Origin: Verrucomicrobiota bacterium
GTDB lineage: Bacteria; Verrucomicrobiota; Verrucomicrobiia; Limisphaerales; Palsa-1400
Reading direction: 5' to 3'
NCBI GenBank assembly: GCA_049513975.1
Contig: JBEKVM010000029.1
Location: forward strand, 12,783-76,782
Length of the DNA: 64,000 nt
In this document: positions 3,885 to 39,989 of the stretch, in pieces
Numbering within the stretch: the stretch's first letter is position 1
How the letters are laid out: the number at the start of each line of letters is the position of its first letter
Program-made: the position numbers and the translations under genes
Notes under the pieces: model-generated
Databases searched by the model: none
Told to the model about the DNA's origin: nothing
What the model saw: the letters and a program-made list of their open reading frames with translations, nothing else

Positions 3885-4505
3885 ATGCCGGATAATTTCG
3901 CCCTGCTGAACGAGCCGCGCCGGCCCTGGCTGGATGCGGCGTTGCTGAAACAAAAGTTTCTCGCCCTTTCGTCTGAAATTCACCCGGACCGCGCGCACGA
4001 GGCGGGGGAAGCGGCACGGGAGGCCGCGACGCGCTGTTTTGCGGAGGTGAACGCGGCCTGGCAATGCCTGCGGGAACCGAAGGAGCGGCTGGGACATTTG
4101 CTGGAATTGGAATTGGGGGCGCGGCCCGCGGACGCGCAGGATGTGCCGGCGGCGGCGATGGATTTGTTTTTTGAAACGGGCCGGATTTGCCGGGAGACGG
4201 ACGCGTTTTTGGCGGCGAAAGGGAAAACCAGCTCGCCAGTGGTCAAGGCGCAAATGTTCGGGCGGGGAATGGAACTGGCCGGACAGTTGAACGGGCTGCA
4301 GCAAGTCATCCAACGGCGGCGGGAGGAGTTGCTGGCGGAGCTGCCGGGTCTGAATGCGGCGTGGGAGGCGGCGCCGGCGGCGGGGACGGCGGAGCGGGCG
4401 GCGGCGCTGCCGCTGGAGTCGCTGGAGCGGGTGTACCGGATGTTGAGCTACATCGCGCGCTGGACCGGACAAATCGAGGAACGGGTGGTGCAGCTTTCGT
4501 TTTGA
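3885..4505 (+). CDS. J-domain co-chaperone (HscB/DnaJ-like)
   Basis: N-terminal J-domain signature with HPD motif (SSEIHPDRAHE) in a 206-aa ORF. Confidence 0.6.
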   Translation: MPDNFALLNEPRRPWLDAALLKQKFLALSSEIHPDRAHEAGEAAREAATRCFAEVNAAWQCLREPKERLGHLLELELGARPADAQDVPAAAMDLFFETGRICRETDAFLAAKGKTSSPVVKAQMFGRGMELAGQLNGLQQVIQRRREELLAELPGLNAAWEAAPAAGTAERAAALPLESLERVYRMLSYIARWTGQIEERVVQLSF

Positions 4506-28296: not shown

Positions 28297-28373
28297 CCGG
28301 AGCGTAGCTCAGCCTGGTAGAGCACTTGGTTTGGGACCAAGACGTCGCAGGTTCAAATCCTGTCGCTCCGACC
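28297..28373 (+). tRNA. tRNA-Pro(TGG), canonical, CCA encoded
   Basis: CGGAGCG-TA-GCTC-AGCCTGGTA-GAGC-A-CTTGG-TTTGGGA-CCAAG-ACGTC-GCAGG-TTCAAAT-CCTGT-CGCTCCG-A-CCA. D-loop GG and T-loop TTCAAAT are present. Confidence 0.95.
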
Positions 28374-29637: not shown

Positions 29638-29861
29638 ATTTTGCTCCTCTGGGGGAAATTCCCCCTTTGCTCGCGCATCCGCTCAAGAAACGCCTCAATA
29701 TCGCTTTGCATCAATCCCACCGCGCGGCCCACCCTCACCAAATGCGGCAGTTCGCCCCGGTCCGTCATCCGCCGCACCGACCGCACGCAAACACCCAGGC
29801 TGGCCGCAACCTCTCGCAATCTCATAACCCGGTCCAGTTTCTTTTCGCCTTCACCATTCAT
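29634..29861 (-). CDS. AlpA/excisionase-like helix-turn-helix protein
   Basis: MRLREVAASLGVCVRSVRRMTDRGELPHLVRVGRAV.. Overlaps the integrase start by 4 nt. Confidence 0.7.
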   Translation of the reverse strand: MNGEGEKKLDRVMRLREVAASLGVCVRSVRRMTDRGELPHLVRVGRAVGLMQSDIEAFLERMREQRGNFPQRSKI

Positions 29862-29877
29862 TTTTATCCTTTCATAC

Positions 29878-30393
29878 TCAAACCACCAGCCGACTTTCCA
29901 GATACGGCTTGGCCTTCTGCCGGGTTTCCGTGTTGATACAAAACCACTTCGCCCGAAGAATTCTGTCCGCCGACACGACATCCTCTTTCAGGAACAGCTT
30001 GGCACCCAGCCGGCCAAGCGGATTCCCAATGGCCTTGTCAATGTGACTCTCGTAAGCGACCCGGCTCTTGAACAAAAAGGCGAATGCCTCGGATTTCACC
30101 CAATTGGCAATGATCCGCGCGGAAGGCTCGATTGTGTCAAAAAACGCATTCCAACTCTTTTTGGGGTCGTTGAGCGCCTTCGTGATCGTGACGGCGCTTA
30201 ATTTGACGCCCTGTTCTTCCAGCAGGAACCGGCTGATTGCCCGCGCACTCATTCTTTGCGACGCCTCGAAAAGAAACGGGAACATTTCGATCACCAGCCC
30301 GCGATGGGCGGTGAACTCTGTTGATTTTGCGTGCCCGACCAATTTCAGGCCGATGTCAGTCGCACTCGTTGTTTTTTGATGGTCTTGTGCCAT
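29878..30393 (-). CDS. Hypothetical protein (island cargo)
   Basis: 171-aa ORF on the same strand as the island genes. No motif recognised. Confidence 0.45.
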   Translation of the reverse strand: MAQDHQKTTSATDIGLKLVGHAKSTEFTAHRGLVIEMFPFLFEASQRMSARAISRFLLEEQGVKLSAVTITKALNDPKKSWNAFFDTIEPSARIIANWVKSEAFAFLFKSRVAYESHIDKAIGNPLGRLGAKLFLKEDVVSADRILRAKWFCINTETRQKAKPYLESRLVV

Positions 30394-30580
30394 ATTGTTG
30401 GTGATCTTAACACCCTTATCAACCTTGTCAACCCCCTATTTTCAACAATTTTAAACACCGAGACCATGCCGCCACCCCCACCTCTGATAAAGGCATTTTC
30501 CCCGCGGCTCGTTCCCGTGTCGTCATCCGGCTTGCTAAAGGCAAGAAGGCCAAGCCGGATGCCAACACGCGAACGCTCCG

Positions 30581-30773
30581 CCCCGACAAGTGCCTGGTGG
30601 TGAAGTCGCTGGATTCCAGCTTGCGCCCTGTTTCCCCTTCGCAACATGGAATCCACCGCCATCACCACCAGGGAGTTGAAGGCAGCGCGGGCAGGCCGCT
30701 TTTGCGGGTCTCAATGATGTTTTCCGCTGTCGCGGAGGGGGAGAAATCAGACTGTGCCGTCACTCCATCTCCG
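30581..30773. repeat. R-module copy 2
   Basis: See 22394..22600. Confidence 0.7.
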
Positions 30774-30922
30774 AGGCCGCGAGGGACGATAACGCACGGA
30801 TGACGCCTAACACGGAAAGCTGAACCACCGCCGACTCGCGACGTGAGCCGCGTTAGCGAAACGGCAAGCGCCACCGGCGGTTCGCTCCGGCGACTTCGTT
30901 AGCCCACGGTGTCTTCACATTT

Positions 30923-31165
30923 CTAATGTCTCTTCCGCTCCCGGTCATAGTGCAGCTTCGTCGCAAAAGCCGCGACCACCAGAATCGGAACAGTGGCGAG
31001 AAGCCAAGGCAGTTCACGAGCGCCGAAGAGGGCCAGTGCGGCGAAGACGCCGATGACAAAATAGACACTCTCCCGACGATAACAGCACTGGCGATAGCTG
31101 CGACCGGAAGAACAAGCACAAGGCTCAATGAACTTCTTCGCCAGCCATGCCTTCGGACTTTTCAT
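30923..31165 (-). CDS. Small membrane protein with SEC-C-type Cys motif
   Basis: CACSSGRSYRQCC followed by two hydrophobic helices. Confidence 0.45.
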   Translation of the reverse strand: MKSPKAWLAKKFIEPCACSSGRSYRQCCYRRESVYFVIGVFAALALFGARELPWLLATVPILVVAAFATKLHYDRERKRH

Positions 31166-31287
31166 TGCAGTGTGCTTGGTGGCCTAAAGAAAAAAGCTGA
31201 ACCACCGCCGACCCGTGACGTGAACCGCGACAGCAGCACGAAAAGCGCCAACGGCGGTTGGCTCCGGCGACTTGTTTGGCGATGGGG

Positions 31288-31563
31288 TCATGACCTGAGT
31301 TCCGTGATGGCATAATAACCATACCTACCCAGTAAAATAATGGGGAAAACGCATAGGAGGCCTGCAACAACTCGCTGCCACATCACACCGTGGCGTAGCA
31401 CCGGAGCAACAAATAGCAATGCGAGACCGGCAAGTCCAAGATTCTCAAAATACCAAGAATCCGGATTTCTGTAGTCCTTAATGATGTAGCTAATGCGGCT
31501 CCAAAGAAACCACTGAACCGCGATGGCCCCAACGAACGCGAAAAGTGGATAGTTCTTTCTCAT
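31288..31563 (-). CDS. Small polytopic membrane protein
   Basis: 91 aa with three hydrophobic segments, AT-richer sequence. Confidence 0.45.
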   Translation of the reverse strand: MRKNYPLFAFVGAIAVQWFLWSRISYIIKDYRNPDSWYFENLGLAGLALLFVAPVLRHGVMWQRVVAGLLCVFPIILLGRYGYYAITELRS

Positions 31564-31566
31564 CCC

Positions 31567-31722
31567 AGAAGGATGTCGCCGCCGGCACCCAAAATCAAGC
31601 CTTTAATGCCGTTAATGCAGTTGTTCGTTTCAAATCAGCAGAGGGAACAACCGCTTTGCACCGGCCTGCCGAAGCCGGGGCACCGAACCGAGCAACGCCG
31701 GAATCCGCTCCATCCAAAATTC
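31567..31722. repeat. S-module copy 2 (Rep 3' end plus conserved leader)
   Basis: See 24001..24147. Confidence 0.7.
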
Positions 31723-32937
31723 AACGCCAGCAAATAGTTTGACAGTGAAATCCCGCGAGAACAACTGCCCCTTCCGCATCTTCGCCCGTTTCTCCTTCGG
31801 ACAGGTCGCCATGCGGTAACGGCGCATCACCCGGCGCAGTTTCAACGCCTGCCCGTTCGTCAACTCCAGTACATCCCGCCGACCGAGAGGCAGATTCTTG
31901 CGGCCAACAATGCCCCAAAACCGACCCGGCTTCGCGGACCAAATGCACTCGCCAATCTTCGCAACATACTTCTTCGCCGCGTACGCGAAGGCCCCACGCT
32001 TCGAGCCAAGCGTCTGAACCGACGTGCCCGCACGATAATGCTTCACCTCGCCGCTCCCAACCACGTCAAACCAATTCCGCGCAAACCAATTCGCAATCGA
32101 ATCTCCGTTCACCACAGACGGACACTTGCCATGCGGCTCCACACGAATGGCACACCATTCCTCGCGCTCATCCACCAAGGCACTGTGACCCTCCACCCAT
32201 TCGCCCCCGGCCAAAACATCCTCATCCCACACAACCACAAGTCCAATCATTCGGCGGCGCAAACGAACTTGCTCGGTCCGCATGGTCTTCCACTCGAAAC
32301 CCCACGGCACGCCCCAGACAAACGCATGGATATGCGGCGCGATCTTCCCCTTGTTCACCCCGCTTTTGCGAGGTTGAAATTCTAGCTTCCACATCAAACA
32401 GCCGTCAGGAAACCGACGGGCGAACCGCTTTGACATCGTATCAATGTGCCGCTTCACCTGTTCGCCATCCCAGGCGTAACGGTCAAACTCATCAGGATAC
32501 GTCAGACCCGCCATGAACGGCACCGCGCCATCTTCCACCTTCGCCAAGTAATCCAACATCCGCCGCCGTGACGCCGCCGTGAACTCCTCAATTTCGCCAC
32601 GCTCACCACCGCGACGCTCAGGCCCGCGCAAATGTCCCTCAGAACGGCACCGCAATTCCATGAAGCTCGCGTTGCGATAAACTTGCAACATGCCCTTGCT
32701 CGTATTTCGCGGTGAATTATGCACCTTAGACAAGCCAGGGCGAACGCATGTGGTCGGCGGCCAGGCGGCCGGTGAACCGTCCACCTGGCCACCGACCCGC
32801 ATTGCGGCGACAACGGCGGCAGCCTGCTCGAATGTAGTGACCGGGGAGGAATCGAAGGAATCATTGCGCACAATCCACCCCCAAACGCGACGCCCCAAGG
32901 AAAGTTGGCCCTCCCGCATCGTCCGTTGACACCACAT
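31630..32937 (-). CDS. Putative HUH-type rolling-circle replication initiator
   Basis: HUH-like APHIHAFVWG and Tyr motif AFAYAAKKYVAK. The start codon is not resolved. Confidence 0.55.
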   Translation of the reverse strand: MWCQRTMREGQLSLGRRVWGWIVRNDSFDSSPVTTFEQAAAVVAAMRVGGQVDGSPAAWPPTTCVRPGLSKVHNSPRNTSKGMLQVYRNASFMELRCRSEGHLRGPERRGGERGEIEEFTAASRRRMLDYLAKVEDGAVPFMAGLTYPDEFDRYAWDGEQVKRHIDTMSKRFARRFPDGCLMWKLEFQPRKSGVNKGKIAPHIHAFVWGVPWGFEWKTMRTEQVRLRRRMIGLVVVWDEDVLAGGEWVEGHSALVDEREEWCAIRVEPHGKCPSVVNGDSIANWFARNWFDVVGSGEVKHYRAGTSVQTLGSKRGAFAYAAKKYVAKIGECIWSAKPGRFWGIVGRKNLPLGRRDVLELTNGQALKLRRVMRRYRMATCPKEKRAKMRKGQLFSRDFTVKLFAGVEFWMERIPALLGSVPRLRQAGAKRLFPLLI

Positions 32938-33193
32938 TCCGCCGCAGAACCGGCGAGCAAAATGGCTCGCTGTCCGGTTCTGCTCGTTCTATTTCGCCGC
33001 CGTGCCGCCCTGGTATCACTGGCCCCCCTTGTCTGTGGCCGTGCTGGCAATGGCGAGGATTGCCACTTTGAGCGCCGCGTTGAGCCGGGGCCATGCCTTG
33101 ACTACTTGGGACAGGTCATGTAAGGAAGTGACCGGAGTTTGTGAGTCTCCTTGTGAGTCTCGCGTTGTAACTCCTTGATTATCAGCAGGCGGA

Positions 33194-33221
33194 GGCAGGT
33201 TCAAATCCTGTCGCTCCGACC
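33194..33221 (+). repeat. attR: duplicated tRNA-Pro 3' end
   Basis: Identical 28 bp to 28346..28373. Confidence 0.9.
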
Positions 33222-33346
33222 ACTTCATGACCCAGGGCTGGGGTTGGATTACCGGGTCGCCCGATCTGCAAATTCGCTCTTGCAGTTGGGTCGCTTTGAA
33301 TTGACAGCTTGGGAGAGCGAGCTTTTTGGCCCGCCCTCCCGGTGTT

Positions 33347-33931
33347 TTATTCCTTCACGAACAGCCTCCATTCGGGAATGCGGTGGGCGTTGCGGATGAG
33401 GGCGGAGGCCGGCAGCTCCTTGGGCGCGCGCGGCACGCGGAGCAATTTCAAGCCGGCTTCGTGGGGAAGGCGGTTGCCTTTGCGGGCGTTGACGTCTTTG
33501 CCGGCCCAAACCAGATTTTCCCAGGCGTTCTTGCCGCCGCGCGAACGGGGCAGGACGTGATCGAGGCTGCCATCTTCAGGGCGCAGGACGCGGCCGGTGT
33601 ATTGGCAGCGGTTGCCGTCGCGCTCGCGGATGGCGCGGGCGCAGAGCTTCGGGCGCTTCTTGGGCACCTTGGCGTAATTGACCGCGACGATGACCGTGGG
33701 CACACGGACCGGACCGCGGACGGTCCGCACGGCGTTGTCCTGCGGACGAATGGGCAGCGTGATCCACTCGTCCCAGGTCACGGGACGGATGTGGTTTTGG
33801 CCTTCGATGTCCAGAGCGGTCGCCACGTTGGTGGCCATCATGCAGAAGGCCTCCTGCGGCGTGCGAACGTTGACGGCCTGCCAGTTGCGGTTGAGCACCA
33901 GCACGAGCGATTTGTTCAGTATGTCATTCAT
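33347..33931 (-). CDS. HNH endonuclease
   Basis: Start MNDILNKS (ATG at 33931). HNH core CQYTG....LDHVLPRSRGGKNAWENLVWAGKDVNARKGN. Same strand as, and immediately downstream of, the tRNA-like array. Confidence 0.8.
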   Translation of the reverse strand: MNDILNKSLVLVLNRNWQAVNVRTPQEAFCMMATNVATALDIEGQNHIRPVTWDEWITLPIRPQDNAVRTVRGPVRVPTVIVAVNYAKVPKKRPKLCARAIRERDGNRCQYTGRVLRPEDGSLDHVLPRSRGGKNAWENLVWAGKDVNARKGNRLPHEAGLKLLRVPRAPKELPASALIRNAHRIPEWRLFVKE

Positions 33932-33937
33932 AAATTC

Positions 33938-34027
33938 AGTGATGAGTGGAGAGTGGAGAGTGATGAATGAAAAACCCGGCACTCCGCATTTCCCACTCTG
34001 CGCCCTGCACTCCCGACTCTGCATTTT
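33938..34027. repeat. Heptad-repeat hairpin a
   Basis: GAGTGGA/GAGTGAT/GAATGAA heptads face CACTCTG/CACTCCC/GACTCTG heptads. Confidence 0.7.
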
Positions 34028-34072
34028 CTTCCGGTGTTTGTTCTTTGTTGGTGCTTGCGCACAATTGGGAAT

Positions 34073-34147
34073 TGGCTGCCCCGCCTGGTTTTGCTCCAGG
34101 TCCTCCGGTTTCAGAGACCGGCGCACTCCTGAGTATGCAACGAGGCA
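34073..34147 (-). tRNA. tRNA-like Gln(CTG), CCA encoded
   Basis: TGCCTCG-TT-GCAT-ACTCAGGA-GTGC-G-CCGGT-CTCTGAA-ACCGG-AGGA-CCTGG-AGCAAAA-CCAGG-CGGGGCA-G-CCA. U1:A72 and G73. Confidence 0.7.
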
Positions 34148-34148
34148 A

Positions 34149-34222
34149 TGGTCGCCCGGGAAGGTTCTGCCCCTTCGATTTCTGGGTGTAGGCCGGACGT
34201 GATTCTATTTCACCACCGGGCG
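34149..34222 (-). tRNA. tRNA-like Val(TAC), CCA encoded
   Basis: CGCCCGG-TG-GTGA-AATAGAA-TCAC-G-TCCGG-CCTACAC-CCAGA-AATC-GAAGG-GGCAGAA-CCTTC-CCGGGCG-A-CCA. C33. Confidence 0.65.
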
Positions 34223-34240
34223 ATTTTGAGTTAAGAATTT

Positions 34241-34304
34241 GGAATGCGGAGTGCGGAATGAAGACGCCCCACTCTGCATTCTGCATTCTTCATTCTGCAT
34301 TTCC
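34241..34304. repeat. Heptad-repeat hairpin b
   Basis: GGAATGCGGAGTGCGGAATGAAGA...CTCTGCATTCTGCATTCTTCATTCTGCATTTCC. Confidence 0.75.
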
Positions 34305-34307
34305 GAG

Positions 34308-34381
34308 TGGCTGCCGGGGCTGGAGTTGCACCAACATATGCGCCTTCAAAGGGCGCTGTCCTACGATTAGACGACCCGGCA
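34308..34381 (-). tRNA. tRNA-like Gln(TTG), CCA encoded
   Basis: TGCCGGG-TC-GTCT-AATCGTA-GGAC-A-GCGCC-CTTTGAA-GGCGC-ATAT-GTTGG-TGCAACT-CCAGC-CCCGGCA-G-CCA. U1:A72 and G73. Confidence 0.75.
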
Positions 34382-34390
34382 AATGGGAAA

Positions 34391-34469
34391 TGATGAAGGA
34401 TGGAGGATGAAGGAAGAATTGAGGGCCGCTGCGATGTTTTGACTTCATCCTTCTTCCTTCATCCTTCTT
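34391..34469. repeat. Heptad-repeat hairpin c
   Basis: GATGAAGGATGGAGGATGAAGGAAGAA...TTCATCCTTCTTCCTTCATCCTTCTT. Confidence 0.75.
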
Positions 34470-34479
34470 ACTGGAAGAG

Positions 34480-34553
34480 TGGTGGCCCGCCAGGGTAACG
34501 CTCCCTGTTCAACGGCTTAAAAGACCGTTGCATCACTTTAATGCTTGCAGGCC
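34480..34553 (-). tRNA. tRNA-like Lys(TTT), CCA encoded
   Basis: GGCCTGC-AA-GCAT-TAAAGTG-ATGC-A-ACGGT-CTTTTAA-GCCGT-TGAA-CAGGG-AGCGTTA-CCCTG-GCGGGCC-A-CCA. A8. Confidence 0.75.
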
Positions 34554-34557
34554 ATGA

Positions 34558-34651
34558 CGATTGCGGATTGGCGATTGCGGATTGCGGATTTGAAGACAAA
34601 GGTCCGGCTGTCCGGGCGCGCTCTCAATTCGCAATTCGCAATCCGCAATTG
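34558..34651. repeat. Heptad-repeat hairpin d
   Basis: GATTGCGGATTGGCGATTGCGGATTGCGGATT...AATTCGCAATTCGCAATCCGCAATT. Confidence 0.75.
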
Positions 34652-34656
34652 AAAGA

Positions 34657-34728
34657 TGGAGCCTCCAGCCGGTGCTGCCCCGGCACGAATTCTTTACAAA
34701 AGAAATCCACAGGCTGCTGCATGGAGGC
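34657..34728 (-). tRNA. tRNA-like Thr(TGT), CCA encoded, reduced D-arm
   Basis: GCCTCCA-TG-CAGCAGCCTGTGGA-TTTCT-TTTGTAA-AGAAT-TCGT-GCCGG-GGCAGCA-CCGGC-TGGAGGC-T-CCA. Confidence 0.55.
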
Positions 34729-34766
34729 GCATTGGCTCGACGGGCCGTAGCTCGAAGAGCGAAGGC

Positions 34767-34838
34767 TGGTCGCAGTCCCCAGTGCTGCCCTGGGCAGAGC
34801 GGGCGTATGAAACCTGCCTGAGCGCTGGCTCGACTGCG
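34767..34838 (-). tRNA. tRNA-like with CAT anticodon (Met/Ile2 type), weak anticodon stem
   Basis: CGCAGTC-GA-GCCAGCGCTCAGG-CAGGT-TTCATAC-GCCCG-CTCTG-CCCAG-GGCAGCA-CTGGG-GACTGCG-A-CCA. Confidence 0.45.
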
Positions 34839-34883
34839 GTGGGCGAATGGCCGTCTTGGGGAAGGGCTTCACACGACCGAAAT

Positions 34884-34993
34884 TGGCGTCCCTGACCGGC
34901 TTTGCTCCCGCCTACGTTCAGATGCTACGGCGGGCAAGCCGGTGATCTCCTGCATGAGAGGCAGGCGTGTTGGCTGGGCTACACTACAGGGAT
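34884..34993 (-). tRNA. tRNA-like Glu(CTC) with about 39-nt hairpin insertion in the T-loop
   Basis: ATCCCTG-TA-GTGT-AGCCCAGCCA-ACAC-G-CCTGC-CTCTCAT-GCAGG-AGATC-ACCGG-[39 nt, CCCGCC..GGCGGG hairpin]-CCGGT-CAGGGAC-G-CCA. Confidence 0.4.
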
Positions 34994-34998
34994 GGAAT

Positions 34999-35090
34999 TG
35001 GTGCGCGCGTCCGGTAACGCTCCGGAACCCGGCACTGATCTAGTGCGATGCGGGGTATAAAGCCGCCGGCTCTCTTTGAGCTACGCGCGC
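34999..35090 (-). tRNA. Class II (long variable arm) tRNA-like, anticodon ambiguous (TAT best fit, TTA alternative)
   Basis: GCGCGCG-TA-GCTC-AAAGA-GAGC-CG-GCGGC-TTTATAC-CCCGC-ATC-GCACT-AGATC-AGTGC-CGGGT-TCCGG-AGCGTTA-CCGGA-CGCGCGC-A-CCA. Confidence 0.5.
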
Positions 35091-35095
35091 GCAAA

Positions 35096-35183
35096 TGGCG
35101 GAATGCCGTGGAGTTGCGCCACATGCCCGAAGGCACGCACTCGTTAGCACCGAGGCCCGGCTCGCTCGTCCGGTTGACATTCC
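35096..35183 (-). tRNA. tRNA-like Ser(GCT), class II, CCA encoded
   Basis: GGAATGT-CAA-CCGG-ACGAGCGAG-CCGG-GC-CTCG-GTGCTAA-CGAG-TGC-GTGCC-TTCG-GGCA-TGTGG-CGCAACT-CCACG-GCATTCC-G-CCA. Confidence 0.65.
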
Positions 35184-35186
35184 AAA

Positions 35187-35261
35187 TGGTGCCCGTGGCA
35201 GGACTTGCGCCTGCACTGTCGAAGGTTTGAGCTTCGCGCCTCTGCCTTGGGCTACACGGGC
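35187..35261 (-). tRNA. tRNA-like Leu(CAA) with short (class I) variable loop
   Basis: GCCCGTG-TA-GCCC-AAGGCAG-AGGC-G-CGAAG-CTCAAAC-CTTCG-ACAGT-GCAGG-CGCAAGT-CCTGC-CACGGGC-A-CCA. Confidence 0.75.
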
Positions 35262-35264
35262 TGT

Positions 35265-35339
35265 TGGTGCCCACGGCCGGATTTGCACCGACACTGGGCG
35301 CGTTTTAAGTGCGCTGTCTCTGCGTTGGACTACATGGGC
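35265..35339 (-). tRNA. tRNA-like Leu(TAA) with short variable loop
   Basis: GCCCATG-TA-GTCC-AACGCAG-AGAC-A-GCGCA-CTTAAAA-CGCGC-CCAGT-GTCGG-TGCAAAT-CCGGC-CGTGGGC-A-CCA. Confidence 0.7.
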
Positions 35340-35343
35340 AAGT

Positions 35344-35419
35344 TGGTACCGCGTGAAGGAATTGCACCCTCAACCTTCCCGTTCTGAGCGGGACGCCTCT
35401 GCTGTTGGGCTAACGCGGC
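35344..35419 (-). tRNA. tRNA-like Leu(CAG) with short variable loop
   Basis: GCCGCGT-TA-GCCC-AACAGCAG-AGGC-G-TCCCG-CTCAGAA-CGGGA-AGGTT-GAGGG-TGCAATT-CCTTC-ACGCGGT-A-CCA. Confidence 0.75.
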
Positions 35420-35425
35420 CTGGAT

Positions 35426-35501
35426 TGGCACTCCCGGAAGGACTCTCACCCTCATCTTCGACGTTCGAAGCGTCGCGCTCTGGTGATTGAGCTACGGGAG
35501 C
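35426..35501 (-). tRNA. tRNA-like Arg(TCG), CCA encoded
   Basis: GCTCCCG-TA-GCTC-AATCACCA-GAGC-G-CGACG-CTTCGAA-CGTCG-AAGAT-GAGGG-TGAGAGT-CCTTC-CGGGAGT-G-CCA. Confidence 0.75.
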
Positions 35502-35503
35502 GG

Positions 35504-35610
35504 GAAGAAGTGCAAAATGCGGAATGCAGAATGCAGAATGAAATGCCGCACACCATGCCTTGCCTTCGGGATGGTCTCACTCTGCATTCTTCACTCTCAA
35601 TTCTCCATTC
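35504..35610. repeat. Heptad-repeat hairpin e
   Basis: GAAGTGCAAAATGCGGAATGCAGAATGCAGAATGAAATG...CACTCTGCATTCTTCACTCTCAATTCTCCATTC. Confidence 0.75.
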
Positions 35611-35614
35611 GAAA

Positions 35615-35689
35615 TGGTGGGTTGCCGCGGAATTGCACCGCGTTCTCGCCGGTTAAGAGCCGGGACTTCACTGTAAAAGTTTGCAACCC
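35615..35689 (-). tRNA. tRNA-like Lys(CTT), CCA encoded
   Basis: GGGTTGC-AA-ACTT-TTACAGTG-AAGT-CCCGG-CTCTTAA-CCGGC-GAGAA-CGCGG-TGCAATT-CCGCG-GCAACCC-A-CCA. A8. Confidence 0.7.
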
Positions 35690-35691
35690 GG

Positions 35692-35768
35692 ACGCGACGC
35701 GATGGCGGAGTTGAACCGCCGCAGCCAGGTCTGTGAGGCCCTTGCCGGCACCGGTGTTCGCGTCGCGT
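35692..35768 (-). other. Hairpin element: 11-bp closing stem enclosing a T-arm with a canonical-type loop, not a cloverleaf
   Basis: Plus-strand arms ACGCGACGCGA (35692..35702) and TCGCGTCGCGT (35758..35768) pair. The minus sense contains GGCGG-TTCAACT-CCGCC. No anticodon arm could be found. Confidence 0.4.
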
Positions 35769-35819
35769 AAGTAATAATCGTCGTTGTTGATTGTCTCCAA
35801 AGGACGTAACAATCCAGGC

Positions 35820-36581
35820 ATGACGATTCCGGCTGAATTGCTGCAACGCCTGGCCGCCGCCAAAAGCGTGACGGTGCTGACGGGCGCCGGCGTGTCGGCG
35901 GAAAGCGGGGTCCCCACATTTCGCGATGCCCAGACCGGGCTGTGGGCGAAATTCAGTCCCGAAGAACTGGCCACGCCGCGCGCCTTCCGGCGAAATCCCC
36001 GCCTGGTTTGGGAATGGTATGAATGGCGGCGTGAGCTTGTCGCCGCCGCCAAGCCAAACCCGGCGCACCTCGCCCTGGCAGAAATGGAGAAGGTCTTTCC
36101 GCGGTTCCATCTCATCACGCAAAACGTGGACGGTCTGCATCAACGCGCTGGAAGCCGGCGGGTCATCGAACTGCACGGCAATATCATGCGCACGAAATGT
36201 TTTGACGAGGGCACGCTGGTTTCGAGTTGGAAAGACACCGGCGATGTCCCGCCGAAATGCCCGGCCTGTGGCGGCTGGTTGCGCCCCGACGTGGTTTGGT
36301 TTGAAGAGGCAATGCCGGAAGCGGAGATGGCACAGGCCGCGACGGCGAGCACGCATTGCGACGTCTTTTTTTCCATCGGCACGTCCACTGTTGTTTATCC
36401 CGCGGCCGCCCTGCCAGCGGAAGCGTTGCGCAGCGGGGCGACCGTGGCGGAGATCAATCCGCAACCCACACCATTCACGCCGCAGGCGCATTTTGCTCTG
36501 GCTGGGGCGGCCGGGGTTGTGTTGCCCGAATTGATGGAGGGCCTCAACGCCGTGCGTGGCGGGCTGCGCGCGTCGTCGTAG
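35820..36581 (+). CDS. cobB: Sir2-family NAD-dependent protein deacylase (CobB-like)
   Basis: GAGVSAESGVPTFRD, QNVDGLHQRAG, Zn ribbon C..C...CPACGG, FFSIGTS. Start MTIPAELL at 35820. Opposite strand to the array. Confidence 0.85.
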   Translation: MTIPAELLQRLAAAKSVTVLTGAGVSAESGVPTFRDAQTGLWAKFSPEELATPRAFRRNPRLVWEWYEWRRELVAAAKPNPAHLALAEMEKVFPRFHLITQNVDGLHQRAGSRRVIELHGNIMRTKCFDEGTLVSSWKDTGDVPPKCPACGGWLRPDVVWFEEAMPEAEMAQAATASTHCDVFFSIGTSTVVYPAAALPAEALRSGATVAEINPQPTPFTPQAHFALAGAAGVVLPELMEGLNAVRGGLRASS

Positions 36582-36636
36582 GCCCACCTCCGCTCTACGA
36601 GCTACGGCGGCCAACCTTCGCCGCGGCGAAGGTTGG
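36582..36636 (-). repeat. Partial E-type repeat with a perfect 12-bp hairpin that pairs the CCA of the Cys tRNA-like
   Basis: CCAACCTTCGCC-GC-GGCGAAGGTTGG (36611..36636) followed by CCGCCGTAGCTCGTAGAGCGG, homologous to the E repeats. Abuts the sirtuin stop codon. Confidence 0.55.
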
Positions 36637-36708
36637 AATCCCGTGCTGGAATTGCACCAGCCTTTGCGGTTCTGCAGACCGCCGCCTGAGCTGCTCGGCC
36701 AACGGGAC
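36634..36708 (-). tRNA. tRNA-like Cys(GCA), CCA encoded
   Basis: GTCCCGT-TG-GCCG-AGCAGCTCA-GGC-G-GCGGT-CTGCAGA-ACCGC-AAAG-GCTGG-TGCAATT-CCAGC-ACGGGAT-T-CCA. U73. Confidence 0.75.
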
Positions 36709-36720
36709 GCACTTCAAAAT

Positions 36721-36795
36721 TGGGGTGACCAACCGGAGTTGCACCGGCACAAACGCCGTCACGGGGCGTGATGCTGCTGTTACATCATGATCACC
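36721..36795 (-). tRNA. tRNA-like His(GTG) with encoded G-1 and C73
   Basis: (G-1)GTGATCA-TG-ATGT-AACAGCA-GCAT-C-ACGCC-CCGTGAC-GGCGT-TTGT-GCCGG-TGCAACT-CCGGT-TGGTCAC-C-CCA. C33. Confidence 0.75.
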
Positions 36796-36798
36796 ATG

Positions 36799-36892
36799 GC
36801 AAAAGTGCAAAGTTGTGAACGCAAAGTGCAGAGTGGAAGGCACCATGTTCGCGTCCTTCCATTCTTCACTCTGCATTCTGCCTTCTTCACTC
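36799..36892. repeat. Heptad-repeat hairpin f
   Basis: AAAGTGCAAAGTTGTGAACGCAAAGTGCAGAGTGGAAGG...CCTTCCATTCTTCACTCTGCATTCTGCCTTCTTCAC. Confidence 0.7.
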
Positions 36893-36895
36893 AAA

Positions 36896-36971
36896 TGGAG
36901 CCCCTGGCCGGACTCGCACCGGCGGATACGAGTTTACGAAACTCGCCCTGTTGCTGCTGAGGCACGGGGGC
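36896..36971 (-). tRNA. tRNA-like Thr(CGT), CCA encoded
   Basis: GCCCCCG-TG-CCTC-AGCAGCAAC-AGGG-CGAGT-TTCGTAA-ACTCG-TATCC-GCCGG-TGCGAGT-CCGGC-CAGGGGC-T-CCA. U73, as in the other Thr unit. Confidence 0.65.
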
Positions 36972-36973
36972 GG

Positions 36974-37099
36974 GAAAGAAAGGATGAAGGATGAAGGCTG
37001 AAGGCTAAAGTAAAGGCAAAAGCGAGCGATCAACAAGAGATTCTAATGCTCGCTGAGCAATCTTTTCCTTCATCCTTCATACTTCTTCCTTCTTACTTC
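36974..37099. repeat. Heptad-repeat hairpin g
   Basis: AAGGATGAAGGATGAAGGCTGAAGGCTAAAG...CCTTCATCCTTCATACTTCTTCCTTCTTACTTC. Confidence 0.7.
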
Positions 37100-37104
37100 A
37101 AAAC

Positions 37105-37150
37105 TGGCGCTCTCACATGGATTTGCACCATGAGGTTCTGGCTTCGTTAC
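37105..37150 (-). pseudogene. 3' fragment of a tRNA-like unit (CCA, acceptor strand, T-arm CATGG-TGCAAAT-CCATG), truncated at the adjacent CDS
   Basis: Plus strand TGG-C-GCTCTCA-CATGG-ATTTGCA-CCATG. No matching 5' acceptor strand. The region beyond 37147 is the 3' end of the ORF. Confidence 0.45.
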
Positions 37151-37719
37151 GGCCAAACACTCGCCCGGTTTGTCGCCAGGTTGTCGAGAATCCAGGTTTT
37201 GTTGCGAAGCGGAAAAAGAGTTAATCTCGACATGTTGTCAACATTACTGGCGGCCTCCCGGACCTCGGCCATATTCGGCAGGCGGACGTAATTGCTGCCT
37301 TCGATCATCACCTGGGGTGCTCGGTGCTCCATGTAGTCCCGTACGTAGCTGCCCAGGGAGCCGCTGTTCGGCGGCCAGTCCGAGGACCGTGGAAGATTCG
37401 TGGAACCACTCCGAAGATCAACGACAAATACCAACATGGACGTGTCGTCGTCGTCCACACACAAGAAGCGTTTGCCGTCCGCAAAAGCATAGAGACAAAG
37501 AGGACAATCAAAAAAGTCGCCCCATATACTGAACAACTTGGTTTCGCCGGCATAGACGGGATATTCCTTGTCCCCCCACCACAGAGGTGCTGGGAGCTTG
37601 ACAGCCGCCACGACTTTCCCGTTTGCGCGAAGCTTCACACTGCGCGTTCCCAATAGCTGCCATAGCGCCAAGCCAATGGCGGCGACTATGAGAATAAGAA
37701 TGACGATTCGTCGTTTCAC
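37147..37719 (-). CDS. Hypothetical membrane-anchored protein
   Basis: MKRRIVILILIVAAIGLALW anchor. Lower GC. Sits inside the array on the array strand. Confidence 0.5.
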   Translation of the reverse strand: MKRRIVILILIVAAIGLALWQLLGTRSVKLRANGKVVAAVKLPAPLWWGDKEYPVYAGETKLFSIWGDFFDCPLCLYAFADGKRFLCVDDDDTSMLVFVVDLRSGSTNLPRSSDWPPNSGSLGSYVRDYMEHRAPQVMIEGSNYVRLPNMAEVREAASNVDNMSRLTLFPLRNKTWILDNLATNRASVWP

Positions 37720-37810
37720 GATGTGCAGCGCCTGGAATCTATAAGCCTGGAACGCCCCTCGTAGCCATCATAAATTCGGGCTGACTCAGTTTCTTGCATT
37801 TAGAGCAAAT

Positions 37811-37888
37811 TGGCATCCGTGATCGGACTCGCACCGATTAGGCCCGGCTTGAAAGACCGGCTGCTCGATCTGCTTTGCATTCACGGAC
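37811..37888 (-). tRNA. tRNA-like Glu(TTC), CCA encoded, enlarged D-loop
   Basis: GTCCGTG-AA-TGC-AAAGCAGATCGA-GCA-G-CCGGT-CTTTCAA-GCCGG-GCCTA-ATCGG-TGCGAGT-CCGAT-CACGGAT-G-CCA. Confidence 0.65.
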
Positions 37889-37909
37889 TAATTGCGCAGG
37901 ACTGAGAAT

Positions 37910-37984
37910 TGGCCCCCGAGGTTGGTATCGCGCCAACGTCTCCTCCTCTTCAGGGAGGCGCTAATCTTCCTCAGCTACCCGGGG
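37910..37984 (-). tRNA. tRNA-like Phe(GAA), CCA encoded
   Basis: CCCCGGG-TA-GCTG-AGGAAGATT-AGC-G-CCTCC-CTGAAGA-GGAGG-AGAC-GTTGG-CGCGATA-CCAAC-CTCGGGG-G-CCA. Confidence 0.75.
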
Positions 37985-37990
37985 AATGAA

Positions 37991-38062
37991 TGGCCCGGTA
38001 GAGGGAGACTCTGTCGAGCTGTGACTAAATCGAGTCAGGGTTCGACGGAGTCTCCCTACCGG
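37991..38062 (-). ncRNA. CCA-terminated rod-like hairpin (acceptor-like stem stacked on a 7-bp stem, no cloverleaf)
   Basis: CCGGTAG-G-GAGACTC-C-GTCGA-ACCC-TGACT-CGATTT-AGTCA-CAGC-TCGAC-A-GAGTCTC-CCT-CTACCGG-G-CCA. Confidence 0.4.
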
Positions 38063-38070
38063 GAAAAGTA

Positions 38071-38141
38071 TCGTCCCGGCAGGTAATGCTCCTGCGTCTT
38101 CCGGTTATCAGCCGGGCGCTCTGCTCTTGAGCTACAGGACG
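38071..38141 (-). tRNA. tRNA-like Ile(GAT), the only member without an encoded CCA
   Basis: CGTCCTG-TA-GCTC-AAGAGCA-GAGC-G-CCCGG-CTGATAA-CCGGA-AGAC-GCAGG-AGCATTA-CCTGC-CGGGACG-A, followed by TAC. Confidence 0.7.
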
Positions 38142-38287
38142 GTGGTTAGTTGCGGTTTCAGGCCGAAGCGTTTGGCGGGGCGGAACACGATGTTCAGCTT
38201 GCCGATTGGCCGGATGCGCATGGCCCGATTTAGTTGGCAGCGCTTGCGAAAGAGCAACTGGCTTTGACAGCGGACAATGGGTTTCAT
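38132..38287 (-). CDS. Possible 51-aa very basic small ORF (below the ORF-track cutoff)
   Basis: ATG at 38287 with AAAGG 8 nt upstream. MKPIVRCQSQLLFRKRCQLNRAMRIRPIGKLNIVFRPAKRFGLKPQLTTVL*. The stop codon lies inside the 5' end of the Ile tRNA-like. Confidence 0.25.
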   Translation of the reverse strand: MKPIVRCQSQLLFRKRCQLNRAMRIRPIGKLNIVFRPAKRFGLKPQLTTVL

Positions 38288-38316
38288 GGGATTACCTTTC
38301 GTTAAGGGTTTGGAAT

Positions 38317-38418
38317 TGGCTTGCCGGGCCGAAGCCGCTTCCGGGAGGAGACATGGCCCGTCTTGGCTTCGCTTCGACGCGGCAGCCTGCGCCGCCCGCT
38401 GATGGAGGCGGCGAAAGC
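38317..38418 (-). repeat. E repeat copy 1 (CCA-terminated structured repeat plus hairpin)
   Basis: Family shared with 38919.., 39193.. and 39468... The plus strand starts AATTGGC(C/T)TGCC and ends GGCGAA(A/G)GCTGG. Confidence 0.6.
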
Positions 38419-38509
38419 TGGCGGAAGGCGTCGGTAACGCTCCGACCTCGGGTTTGAGCCGATCCTGTTTTCGGGACAGGCGCAGCCAGCTTATATCTGC
38501 CTGCCTTCC
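38419..38509 (-). tRNA. tRNA-like Ser(CGA), class II, CCA encoded
   Basis: GGAAGGC-AG-GCAG-ATATAAGCTGG-CTGC-G-CCTGT-CCCGAAA-ACAGG-A-TCGG-CTCAAAC-CCGA-G-GTCGG-AGCGTTA-CCGAC-GCCTTCC-G-CCA. C33. Confidence 0.7.
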
Positions 38510-38513
38510 TTAA

Positions 38514-38588
38514 GTGGAGAGTTGGGAGTAAAGAGTGTAGAATCGAAAATGCCTGTATTCTGCACTCTGCACTTTGCACTCTGCATTC
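38514..38588. repeat. Heptad-repeat hairpin h
   Basis: GTGGAGAGTTGGGAGTAAAGAGTGTAGAATCG...TATTCTGCACTCTGCACTTTGCACTCTGCATTC. Confidence 0.7.
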
Positions 38589-38592
38589 AAAA

Positions 38593-38666
38593 TGGCTGCC
38601 AGACTTGGACTCGCACCAAGACAAGCGGCTTAACAGGCCGCCGTGCTACTTTGACACCACCTGGCA
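38593..38666 (-). tRNA. tRNA-like Asn(GTT), CCA encoded
   Basis: TGCCAGG-TG-GTGT-CAAAGTAG-CAC-G-GCGGC-CTGTTAA-GCCGC-TTGT-CTTGG-TGCGAGT-CCAAG-TCTGGCA-G-CCA. Confidence 0.75.
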
Positions 38667-38668
38667 AT

Positions 38669-38745
38669 TGGCGCTGCCGGCAGGATTTGCACCCGCATAA
38701 GTTCGTTTAGAAGACGAACGCCTCATCTCGTTCGGCCACGGCAGC
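38669..38745 (-). tRNA. tRNA-like Arg(TCT), CCA encoded
   Basis: GCTGCCG-TG-GCCG-AACGAGATGA-GGC-G-TTCGT-CTTCTAA-ACGAA-CTTAT-GCGGG-TGCAAAT-CCTGC-CGGCAGC-G-CCA. Confidence 0.75.
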
Positions 38746-38754
38746 TTTTGGAAA

Positions 38755-38830
38755 TGGTCGGAATGGCAGGGTTTTCACCTGCGGCCTCCCGGTCCCAAGC
38801 CGGGTGCTCTAAAGACTGAGCTACATTCCG
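38755..38830 (-). tRNA. tRNA-like Pro(TGG), CCA encoded
   Basis: CGGAATG-TA-GCTC-AGTCTTTA-GAGC-A-CCCGG-CTTGGGA-CCGGG-AGGCC-GCAGG-TGAAAAC-CCTGC-CATTCCG-A-CCA. Confidence 0.75.
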
Positions 38831-38837
38831 TGAAGAA

Positions 38838-38913
38838 TGGCGGACCCGAAGGGAGTTGCACCCTCAACCCTCCCGCAGACAACGGGGCGCTCTGCTGATT
38901 GAGCTACGAGTCC
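38838..38913 (-). tRNA. tRNA-like Asp(GTC), CCA encoded
   Basis: GGACTCG-TA-GCTC-AATCAGCA-GAGC-G-CCCCG-TTGTCTG-CGGGA-GGGTT-GAGGG-TGCAACT-CCCTT-CGGGTCC-G-CCA. Confidence 0.7.
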
Positions 38914-38918
38914 GAAAT

Positions 38919-39019
38919 TGGCCTGCCCGCCGAAGCTGCGCAGGACGAGGCGTAAAGCCCGCCTTCGCTAAAGCTACGGCGCGGCAGCCTTCGCCCGCCG
39001 TTGCACAGCGGGCGAAGGC
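38919..39019 (-). repeat. E repeat copy 2
   Basis: Minus sense: GCCTTCGCCCGC-TGTGCAACG-GCGGGCGAAGGC hairpin, then CTGCCGCGCCGTAGCTTTAGCGAAGGCGGGCTTTACGCCTCGTCCTGCGCAGCTTCGGCGGGCAG-G-CCA. Confidence 0.65.
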
Positions 39020-39107
39020 TGGTGGGAAGTGCTGGTAACGCTCCAGTCGTCGCTTCCGACATGTTTTGAGACGTCCGGGTTACGGCCGGATTGCCGGATC
39101 ACTTCCC
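39020..39107 (-). tRNA. tRNA-like Tyr(GTA)?, 88 nt, D-arm reduced, long extra arm
   Basis: GGGAAGT-GA-TCCGGCAA-TCCGG-CCGTAAC-CCGGA-CGTCTCAAAACATGTCGGAAGCGACG-ACTGG-AGCGTTA-CCAGC-ACTTCCC-A-CCA. C33. Alternative folds are possible. Confidence 0.45.
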
Positions 39108-39113
39108 TGAAAT

Positions 39114-39186
39114 TGGTAGCGGGGGTGGGAGTTGCGCCCACGGAGGCAGAGCTTATGAGGCTCGCCTGAATCTCATTCTCCCCGCA
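39114..39186 (-). tRNA. tRNA-like Met-type (CAT), 1:72 mismatch, tiny D-loop
   Basis: TGCGGGG-A-GAAT-GAG-ATTC-AGGC-GAGC-CTCATAA-GCTC-TGCCTCC-GTGGG-CGCAACT-CCCAC-CCCCGCT-A-CCA. Confidence 0.55.
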
Positions 39187-39192
39187 GTGAAA

Positions 39193-39293
39193 TGGCCTGC
39201 CAGCCGTAGCTGTGCAGGACGAGGCGTAACGTCGGCCTTCGCTAAAGCTACGGCGCGGCAGCCTTCGCCCGCCGTTGCACAGCGGGCGAAGGC
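39193..39293 (-). repeat. E repeat copy 3
   Basis: Near-identical to copy 2 over the hairpin and the CGGCGCGGCAGCCTTCGCCCGCCGTTGCACAGCGGGCGAAGGCTGG block. Confidence 0.65.
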
Positions 39294-39368
39294 TGGTGGA
39301 GTCGGTGGGTAACGCTCCCACATCGGCTTGCTTGCAGGGCAAGTGCATTGCTTGTCTGCCACGACCCC
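39294..39368 (-). tRNA. tRNA-like Ala(TGC) with G3:U70
   Basis: GGGGTCG-TG-GCA-GACAAGCAA-TGC-A-CTTGC-CCTGCAA-GCAAG-CCGAT-GTGGG-AGCGTTA-CCCAC-CGACTCC-A-CCA. Position 3 G pairs with position 70 T. C33. Confidence 0.75.
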
Positions 39369-39383
39369 ATAAAGTCAAAAGAA

Positions 39384-39457
39384 TGGCAAGCCGCCCTGGT
39401 GCTGCCCCAGGCAAGCTGAGTTTTGGAGACTCTGCTGCACAGGCTGGTGCGCGACTT
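39384..39457 (-). tRNA. tRNA-like Trp(CCA), CCA encoded
   Basis: AAGTCGC-GCAC-CAGCCT-GTGC-AGCA-GAGT-CTCCAAA-ACTC-AGCTTG-CCTGG-GGCAGCA-CCAGG-GCGGCTT-G-CCA. Confidence 0.6.
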
Positions 39458-39467
39458 GTTTTGGAAT

Positions 39468-39567
39468 TGGCCTGCCAGCCGCAGCCGCGCAGGAGGAAAC
39501 GAAAAGCCCGCCTTCGCTGAAGCTGCGGCGGGCAGCCTTCACCCGTTGACATGCAGCGGGGGAAGGC
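39468..39567 (-). repeat. E repeat copy 4 (most diverged)
   Basis: The plus strand starts AATTGGCCTGCCAGCCGCAGCCGCGCAGG and ends GCAGCGGGGGAAGGCTGG. Confidence 0.55.
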
Positions 39568-39641
39568 TGGTGCGGTTGCCGGGAGTTGCGCCCGGACTTC
39601 CTCCGTGGCGGGGAGGCATTCTGCTGTTAAATCACAACCGC
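39568..39641 (-). tRNA. tRNA-like Gly(GCC), CCA encoded
   Basis: GCGGTTG-TG-ATTT-AACAGCAG-AAT-G-CCTCC-CCGCCAC-GGAGG-AAGT-CCGGG-CGCAACT-CCCGG-CAACCGC-A-CCA. C33. Confidence 0.75.
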
Positions 39642-39651
39642 GAAATTAGAA

Positions 39652-39679
39652 GGGCCGGGAGCGTTGCTGCTCCCGGCCC
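39652..39679. other. 11-bp perfect GC-rich hairpin 10 nt upstream of the first array unit
   Basis: GGGCCGGGAGC-gttgct-GCTCCCGGCCC. Confidence 0.6.
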
Positions 39680-39989
39680 ATGCCATTTCAACAAAGAACA
39701 AACACCTCTTGGCGATCTAAGCGATCCCAACCCGCGGTTTCACGGCGGCTGTTTCGGTGTTTAGGGGCACACCTCCTGCAAAGCCCTTAATATGTAAATC
39801 TAAAATTCGTCCTGTTCGTCCTGGGGACGTTGTCTTCCGGTCGTGGGCAGACCCCGCCGGTGAGGCTTCTCTGCTCGTCCCCGCCAAATTCAATTTGTCG
39901 CCAGAAGACATCACCTGGATGTCGCGTTATTCTTGTTCACAGATTGTCCATTTATCGTTGTTAATCGTTCACAGTCATGCTTTTCAGGG

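Follow-up and report, generated by a model that had tools for sequence, protein, structure and literature searches.

Which protein genes truly belong to a long array of transfer RNA (tRNA) genes, and what might they do there? The question arises from a 64,000-nucleotide (nt) stretch of DNA, here called the window, from a Verrucomicrobiota soil bacterium of the lineage Limisphaerales, Palsa-1400 (assembly GCA_049513975.1, contig JBEKVM010000029.1, positions 12,783–76,782). The minus strand of the window carries an array of about 20 tRNA units at 34076–39641 (16 called by ARAGORN and 4 by Rfam), nearly all with an encoded CCA end. Only three open reading frames (ORFs) within this island were supported: an HNH endonuclease gene, a Sir2 deacylase gene and a membrane-anchored ORF. 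A reading made from the sequence only had tied all three to the array. This held for the HNH gene but not, as a general partnership, for the other two; the HNH gene is the one protein gene of the three that truly belongs to the island.

Linkage of the HNH gene to the array

The HNH gene (33347–33931, minus strand) encodes a 194-residue protein from an ATG start and is the 3'-terminal conserved protein gene of the island. It begins 144 nt beyond the last array unit (34076–34147, minus strand, Rfam 43 bits), on the array strand and just past a heptad-repeat hairpin, as the sequence-only reading had described. To place this arrangement among relatives, we scanned one genome per species, which returned 232 relatives, and used the best 80 loci among them (numbered with the prefix L below). 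Nearly all came from Verrucomicrobiota metagenome bins (Limisphaerales, Pedosphaera and 'Verrucomicrobiia') with HNH proteins 76–95% identical, and the few bins with other names were probably mis-binned. Contigs ended less than 3 kb upstream of the HNH gene in 26/80 loci, as expected if array repeats break assemblies. ORFs of all loci were clustered and representatives checked against Pfam; several large clusters in high-GC loci were shadow ORFs lying over tRNAs or the HNH gene and were ignored.

Upstream sequence reached 3 kb or more in 54 loci, and 53 of them had at least three tRNAs on the same strand upstream of the HNH gene; this conserved neighbourhood bears out the claimed tie between gene and array. 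Same-strand tRNAs around the gene numbered 666 upstream (474 kb) vs 7 downstream (589 kb) in the related loci, and a median of 248 nt separated the HNH start from the last tRNA. The order of anticodons was kept as well: Gly Ala Asp Pro Arg Asn (Ser) Ile Phe (Arg) Thr His, further on Cys, and later Arg Leu Leu Leu Ile Arg Gly Val Glu Thr Leu Lys Gln (Gln), then the HNH gene. Genes flanking the islands varied between loci. The HNH gene was intact in nearly all loci, its sole remnant being in the reduced island L117 (leader, 2 tRNAs, HNH remnant), while L076 had a leader, RtcB and HNH with no detectable tRNAs.

The HNH gene is under purifying selection, with a median ratio of nonsynonymous to synonymous substitution rates (dN/dS) of 0.14 across 1326 pairs at synonymous divergence (dS) of 0.3–1.2, and its GC content at third codon positions (GC3) was host-like at 0.84. 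At least 11 genome bins held 2 or 3 array copies, the HNH proteins of which were 85–95% identical to one another. Since many Limisphaerales bins keep the leader and the order of genes and the paralogues are old, inheritance looks vertical from the sequences. This lineage offers hundreds of comparable copies with the HNH position fixed.

At the 5' end of the island lies a conserved leader (39642–39800, minus strand) with a near-invariant core of ~125 nt, a hairpin at 39652–39679 and a T-rich run before the first tRNA. Conservation extended 400 nt upstream of the first tRNA (to ~40040) in at least 25 genome loci. The hairpin is GC-rich and its sequence varied with compensatory changes in the alignment, and a terminator-like site was scored in the leader. 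Rfam had no match for the leader and within the island matched only tRNAs. Leader and terminator together look like an attenuator or riboswitch-type control of the array. The leader core also occurred in at least 120 metagenome contigs. Same-strand tRNAs followed it in 26 of the 33 with at least 1.5 kb downstream, and in the few contigs long enough to reach it, an HNH gene stood 5.8–6.5 kb beyond the core. At the other end, the spacer between the last tRNA and the HNH start (33932–34075, minus strand) folds into a long imperfect heptad-repeat hairpin (−48.6 kcal/mol, z = −2.4), with no T-run after the hairpin and no promoter-like or terminator-like site scored on the array strand. Because no terminator precedes the HNH gene and the leader is shared by collapsed islands, this layout suggests that leader, array and HNH gene form one transcription unit.

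The HNH protein matched the Pfam families HNH_4 (33.5 bits, cut-off 22) and HNH_5 (29.9 bits, cut-off 27.5) and consists of an N-terminal domain followed by an HNH domain of the IscB/Cas9 type. The beta-beta-alpha-metal catalytic motif is intact: its residues D124, H125, N139 and N148, plus K151, were invariant in an alignment of 10 diverse homologues. NCBIfam gave partial matches to Cas9d, Cas9 and IscB. The nearest PDB relatives of the HNH domain were TbaIscB (2e-16), the Geobacter nicking enzyme Gmet_0936 (1.4e-13) and the Cas9d group (~1e-12), and the closest structural relatives all cleave DNA. Residues 1–92 had no significant PDB or family match in sequence searches, and no RNA-binding domain was detected in the protein by Pfam, NCBIfam or PDB sequence searches. 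The predicted structure, built from a 30-sequence alignment of at least 80% identity, had a predicted local distance difference test score of 36, too poor for fold comparison, and a profile search for diverse homologues yielded the same close clade only.

The Sir2 gene and the membrane-anchored ORF

Protein genes found inside tRNA arrays are not all partners of the array; here one of three is. The Sir2 gene (35820–36581, plus strand) lies opposite the array strand, with tRNA-Cys on one side and the Arg(TCG) block on the other, and encodes a class III deacylase dependent on nicotinamide adenine dinucleotide (NAD). The single-domain protein of 253 residues is full-length, with the class III Y-x-x-R motif, the catalytic His and the zinc cysteines present. 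It scored 178.9 bits to PF02146, 290.6 to NCBIfam NF001753 (cut-off 243) and 225 bits to Sir2-Af1. By its sequence it is a canonical CobB-type deacylase, resembling CobB, Sir2-Af1 and SIRT5 sirtuins along its full length; its location alone is unusual, antisense within a tRNA array and cutting a repeat. Its stop codon (36579–36581) cuts one of the array's E repeats after ~52 of ~106 nt. The earlier description of a canonical gene on the opposite strand abutting a truncated E repeat was therefore correct in each part.

As a general array partner, Sir2 did not hold up. Of the 80 genome loci, three had it inside the array, at the same position by tRNA-Cys and in antisense; these were L001, L003 and L004, whose arrays are the closest. 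Elsewhere, L047 had it upstream of its array, and the leader-bearing metagenome locus L181 had it behind an SPFH gene. The simplest reading is that Sir2 is a passenger caught in the array in one sub-clade, a reading that is less certain than for the membrane-anchored ORF because the gene recurs. Sir2 matched a PHROG family and had no defence-system match in PADLOC at E ≤ 0.01, and on the latter result we rejected it as a defence effector. Beside Sir2 in L001 (6146–7663) was an extra, unrelated ORF of 505 residues, absent from the window, whose product looks by its sequence like a secreted esterase or tannase. Ordinary genes evidently come and go within these arrays.

The membrane-anchored ORF (37147–37719, minus strand) encodes 190 residues with one N-terminal hydrophobic helix at residues 5–23. 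It has 31 homologues at 36–99% identity, from which we take it to be a real gene, and it had no family in Pfam, NCBIfam, PHROG or PADLOC. Its composition is foreign (GC 0.548; GC3 0.64 vs 0.84 for the HNH gene). Relative to the orthologous locus L001, the ORF is an insertion of ~660 bp that replaced the 5' half of the array tRNA-Arg(GCG). The 3' remnant of that tRNA (37103–37146, minus strand) runs from the end of the anticodon loop to CCA and abuts the stop codon of the ORF; it matched the Arg(GCG) of L070 at 28/34 positions and L001 exactly over 32 nt. The low-GC ORF at a tRNA fragment lacking its 5' half was thus rightly recognized at first reading.

Its proposed partnership with the array fell away, as the ORF was found in 0/80 genome loci. 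Its closest homologues stood once in the same slot of a related island, after an embedded RtcB gene and beside a tyrosine integrase, and otherwise next to another integrase or, in five cases, in unrelated contexts without tRNAs. With one lineage in the slot and five close homologues elsewhere without tRNAs, we rejected the ORF as a general array partner. Integrases commonly insert into tRNA anticodon loops, and the ORF is probably the remnant of an integrase-borne foreign insertion into the anticodon loop of tRNA-Arg(GCG). The simplest reading is again that of a passenger. The metagenome island L085–L087 carried, in order, an RtcB fragment, the membrane ORF homologue, the tyrosine integrase, two tRNA-Gln, HNH, RtcB, an RNA ligase, the HD-kinase, two R2K ATP-grasp genes and TatD; it appears to have lost most of its array beside the integrase.

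Candidate roles of the HNH protein

The pairing of an HNH gene with a tRNA array is already known from cyanobacteria, mycobacteria and phages, and the window holds a distinct, lineage-specific chromosomal variant. The purpose of such widespread long arrays with HNH genes is debated, with selfish passengers, stress backups and anti-defence tools all under discussion. Among plasmids, the window HNH protein matched best to those already known to bear long tRNA arrays, from Nostoc, Acaryochloris, Tolypothrix, Mycobacterium, Mycolicibacterium and Tsukamurella. The match on plasmid delta of Nostoc PCC 7120 (pCC7120delta) was a 178-residue HNH gene 200 nt upstream of a 24-tRNA array, which we identify as All8564 because it fits the published description. 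BLASTP aligned it to the window protein at 42% identity over 99 residues (E = 5e-22) in the HNH half, and the N-terminal domains align as well; we assign the window protein to an All8564-type family. Cyanobacterial L-arrays have an HNH gene as a conserved neighbour, which ribosome-targeting antibiotics induce along with the array and rtcB (PMC8421152). In Anabaena, a slipin gene and rimK join the array, all8564 and rtcB under control of the repressor TrcR (PMC10272220).

The Anabaena and window systems share a small two-domain HNH protein (178 vs 194 residues) beside a long same-strand array that includes tRNA-Leu units of ~75 nt. They differ in other respects. The Anabaena gene lies upstream of its array with its own promoter, whereas the window gene sits at the array 3' end. 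Control in Anabaena runs through TrcR operator repeats, in contrast to the leader and terminator of the window type. The Anabaena array is plasmid-borne, while window-type islands are chromosomal, keep their gene order throughout an order-level lineage and often occur in 2–3 copies. The window protein has also lost three of the four zinc cysteines and gained ~25 residues relative to All8564.

Mycobacterial arrays are alike in having an adjoining HNH gene, the most widespread protein gene of those array units, and embedded translation-related genes (PMC5966550; for Mycobacterium avium linear plasmids, PMC12803027). Their HNH proteins were 40–44% identical to ours in the HNH half only, and the arrays differ in being on mobile replicons, with another gene order and no reported elbow change. 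The sequence-only reading's remark that HNH genes beside tRNA clusters are typical of phages was sound: the clusters of cyanophage S-CRM01 and the Tunturiibacter jumbo phage Tunturi_5 contain full-length homologues (~30% identity, PHROG 16726) inside same-strand tRNAs, and in Tunturi_5 RtcB and a RimK-like gene adjoin the cluster. Homing endonucleases in phage tRNA clusters also include T4 SegB and HNH genes of cluster M mycobacteriophages.

The window protein's HNH domain lies nearest in sequence to those in IscB and type II-D Cas9. In size and layout the protein also resembles IshB, which has ~180 residues with a small N-terminal PLMP domain and an HNH domain (PMC10734217, PMC11610941). Sequence searches gave its N-terminal domain no match to PLMP, and neither an IS200/IS605 transposase nor a recognized guide RNA was found nearby. 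A presumed motif likeness between this domain and PLMP/IshB is a lead only, as PDB searches gave nothing significant.

Genes beside the HNH gene in the related islands point to a context of RNA repair. An RtcB of ~470 residues followed directly after the HNH gene on the array strand in 27/61 loci, and another of ~376 residues was embedded after tRNA-Phe, also on the array strand, in 14/41. Further array-strand neighbours were RtcA (8 loci), an RNA ligase (6), an HD plus P-loop kinase (6), SPFH/Band 7 (9) and a metallophosphoesterase, and one lineage adds two R2K ATP-grasp genes and TatD. In total, 32/61 loci had an RNA-repair gene (RtcB, RtcA, RNA ligase or HD-kinase) within 5 kb downstream of the HNH gene on the same strand; none of the four was present in the window. 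Genes that in Anabaena are scattered members of a stress regulon (array, HNH, RtcB, slipin/SPFH and RimK-type ligases) are here physically strung together. By analogy, the related islands would be that regulon in the form of physical neighbours, which supports a response to tRNA or translation damage, and the island probably serves tRNA or translation stress. The earlier suggestion of a spare tRNA set for such damage fits the repair genes of homologous islands and the Anabaena regulon; its action as a decoy or backup we can only infer.

We think it probable, though well short of secure, that this is an L-array island with the HNH gene as its protein gene, expressed with the array and acting on DNA, and with Sir2 and the membrane-anchored ORF as passengers. 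Neither of the latter is needed to explain the island. The island would run along the minus strand from the leader (~39800) through ~20 tRNA units to the HNH gene (33931–33347), which would be transcribed with the array once the leader permits read-through, in a response to tRNA or translation damage. The protein would then be a metal-dependent nickase or endonuclease that cuts DNA, in keeping with its nearest structural relatives, and its cuts might promote recombination that keeps, rearranges or spreads the array. This mechanism is far less certain than the place of the HNH gene in the island.

Several points weigh against this account. The role in maintenance or spread is its weakest step, since strong purifying selection and diverged paralogues make frequent homing or gene conversion unlikely: copies within one genome bin share just 85–95% identity, and L001 is nearer to the window copy than to its own bin-mate L003. 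Co-transcription and stress induction are extrapolated from Anabaena, and DNA as the substrate is something we infer from the protein's relatives. Of the zinc CxxC...CxxC motif, C109 alone is kept in the window clade (the other positions are T, G and V), while All8564 and the phage homologues retain all four cysteines. Loci were retrieved through the HNH gene, so arrays without one would escape, and in the reverse direction, starting from the leader, 4 contigs reached 7 kb and 2/4 showed the HNH gene. Some of the bins with two copies may be mixtures of strains. Finally, Sir2 occurs in antisense in at least 5 islands, which could mean more than hitch-hiking.

An alternative that we regard as unlikely is that the HNH protein acts on RNA as part of the repair set, trimming damaged tRNAs, processing the array transcript at its heptad hairpins or E repeats, or clearing broken RNA before RtcB or the ligase acts. 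HNH is adjacent to and co-oriented with RtcB, RtcA, RNA ligase and HD-kinase genes in about half of the loci, it is conserved as strongly as a housekeeping partner, and an array transcript with repeated hairpins needs much processing; all8564 and rtcB moreover share a regulon in Anabaena (PMC10272220). On the other side, the closest relatives of the protein cleave DNA, it lacks a detectable RNA-binding domain, and repair genes are missing from the neighbourhood of the HNH gene in the window and in 29 further loci. The ends made by HNH enzymes, 5'-phosphate and 3'-OH, are not ones that RtcB joins, and this chemistry argues against the HNH protein as a partner of RtcB in RNA repair.

It also seems improbable that the gene is a plain selfish homing endonuclease that, in the manner of T4 SegB, spreads itself and the array into HNH-free alleles with no benefit to the cell. 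SegB is itself a GIY-YIG enzyme and not an HNH enzyme. Homing has been proposed for All8564 and for the HNH genes of mycobacterial and phage arrays (PMC8421152, PMC5966550). The family is common to plasmids, phages and chromosomes, the arrays are rich in indels and insertions, and the bins with two or three copies would suit such spread. A dN/dS of 0.14 at dS ≤ 1.2 and a position fixed in 53/54 loci are nevertheless unlike a cycle of gain, decay and loss; the paralogues are old and not homogenized, and the gene has host-like GC3 and no close copy in 2.9 million viral contigs. Fixed position and selection together argue for a real function rather than simple selfish spread.

The suggested phage derivation of the island found no direct support. 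No structural, replication or lysis genes of phages were present in the island, and a scan of 2.9 million viral contigs returned 5 distant HNH homologues, the closest 42–46% identical and without arrays, on which we rejected a phage origin. Unlike the window array, phage clusters carry canonical tRNAs, and nothing points to a prophage. A prophage remnant or phage-derived defence island in which the three proteins cooperate, for instance with Sir2 consuming NAD as the effector and the membrane protein sensing, is very improbable. In its favour, HNH genes with tRNA clusters are typical of large phages, several defence systems contain Sir2 domains, Sir2 has a PHROG match and the membrane-anchored ORF is foreign in composition. 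On the other side, phage genes and close viral relatives are missing, Sir2 fits the CobB-type model without a PADLOC match and lies on the opposite strand in ~3% of loci, and the membrane-anchored ORF is in none of the 80 loci, with its close homologues mostly in unrelated contexts.

The rewritten tRNA elbow, array repeats and an adjoining element

The altered elbow noted earlier for the array tRNAs is real and systematic, and is probably the most unusual feature of the locus. Across 682 array tRNAs from the window and related loci, G55 replaced the almost universal U in 671 (98%), ~90% had no GG (G18G19) in the D-loop, and T54:A58 alternated with A54:T58. Within the window, T-loops read TGC, AGC, CGC or TGA in place of TTC, and GG was mostly missing from the D-loops. 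Elbows were canonical in 8/8 tRNAs outside the arrays (7 in related loci plus the window tRNA-Pro), in the T and D loops of phage cluster tRNAs and, in contrast to the window type, in 23/24 Anabaena array tRNAs. The array tRNA-Pro(UGG) is 78% identical to the canonical tRNA-Pro(UGG) on the plus strand at 28298, and differs from this housekeeping copy by D-loop GG to TT along with T-loop TC to GA, a swap in which both elbow contacts would be kept. A literature search found no description of tRNA arrays with such a rewritten elbow (G55, no G18G19).

Cloverleaves and encoded CCA ends were kept in the array tRNAs, tRNA-Ala retained G3:U70, and U33 was present in 87%. The tRNA-Leu units were all ~75 nt without a long variable arm (116 cases; window 35187–35419), as in the Anabaena array. 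Tyr was absent from the repertoire, and Met, Trp and Ser nearly so. The window array packs its 20 units into 5.6 kb on one strand, with at most 21 ARAGORN calls per related locus.

The elbow raises one bolder possibility, which we would entertain only as a doubtful one: that the HNH gene is an obligatory, selected part of a self-contained second tRNA system peculiar to Limisphaerales, with a job that depends on the elbow. This system would be a leader-controlled tRNA operon with paired swaps such as G19-C56 to U19-A56 and T54:A58 to A54:T58, often joined to RtcB, RtcA, RNA ligase, kinase and SPFH genes. The rewritten elbow might hide or distinguish the set from a recognizer of the normal tRNA elbow or gene, and the IscB-like HNH protein might cut DNA or another nucleic acid that carries the canonical T-loop box, or act with array RNA as enzymes of the IscB family do. 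The rewritten elbow and the conserved leader are in any case handles for experiments on array function.

A unit of 90–92 nt (window 34999–35090), called tRNA-Ile(UAU), has a long extra arm and is conserved in 33 arrays; the tRNA cluster of cyanophage S-CRM01 contains a 90-nt unit with the same call (L092, 4698–4787). Another (window 37800–37890, minus strand; also at 4470–4567 in L001 and in 14 other loci) has a CCA end and a T-arm, is 87–97% conserved and has an aberrant anticodon region, and was not called a tRNA by ARAGORN or Rfam.

Hairpins of 7-nt repeats with GARTGCA-like and CACTCNN-like arms lie between the tRNA blocks on the minus strand (33950–34040, 34230–34300, 35540–35620, 36810–36890, 38520–38610 and others), one of them just before the HNH start. 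A second hairpin type is built of GAAGGAT repeats (34390–34480 and 36980–37105, minus strand). The E repeats of ~106 nt start at a tRNA unit's CCA and close with a GCCA of their own (window 38315–39583, minus strand). Two long hairpins make up their fold (−68 kcal/mol, z = −5.4), and three copies recur at a 274-nt period, each behind a unit with the T-loop AGCGTTA. The copy truncated by Sir2 (36582–36633, minus strand) starts at the CCA of tRNA-Cys and was aligned with four full copies.

The edge of the island on the HNH side lies ~125 nt from a separate integrated element of 4.85 kb (28375–33222), which has tRNA-Pro(UGG) on one side and, on the other, a 28-nt exact copy of that tRNA's 3' end (repeats at 28347 and at 33195–33222). 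The element holds small ORFs without a family and, at 31630–32937, a Rep-like ORF of 435 residues with a weak match to PF23343 (rolling-circle Rep); no integrase was seen in it. Because it sits inside the tRNA-Pro repeats that bound this element, we rejected the Rep-like ORF as a member of the island. The same 4.85 kb element is also present in L001.

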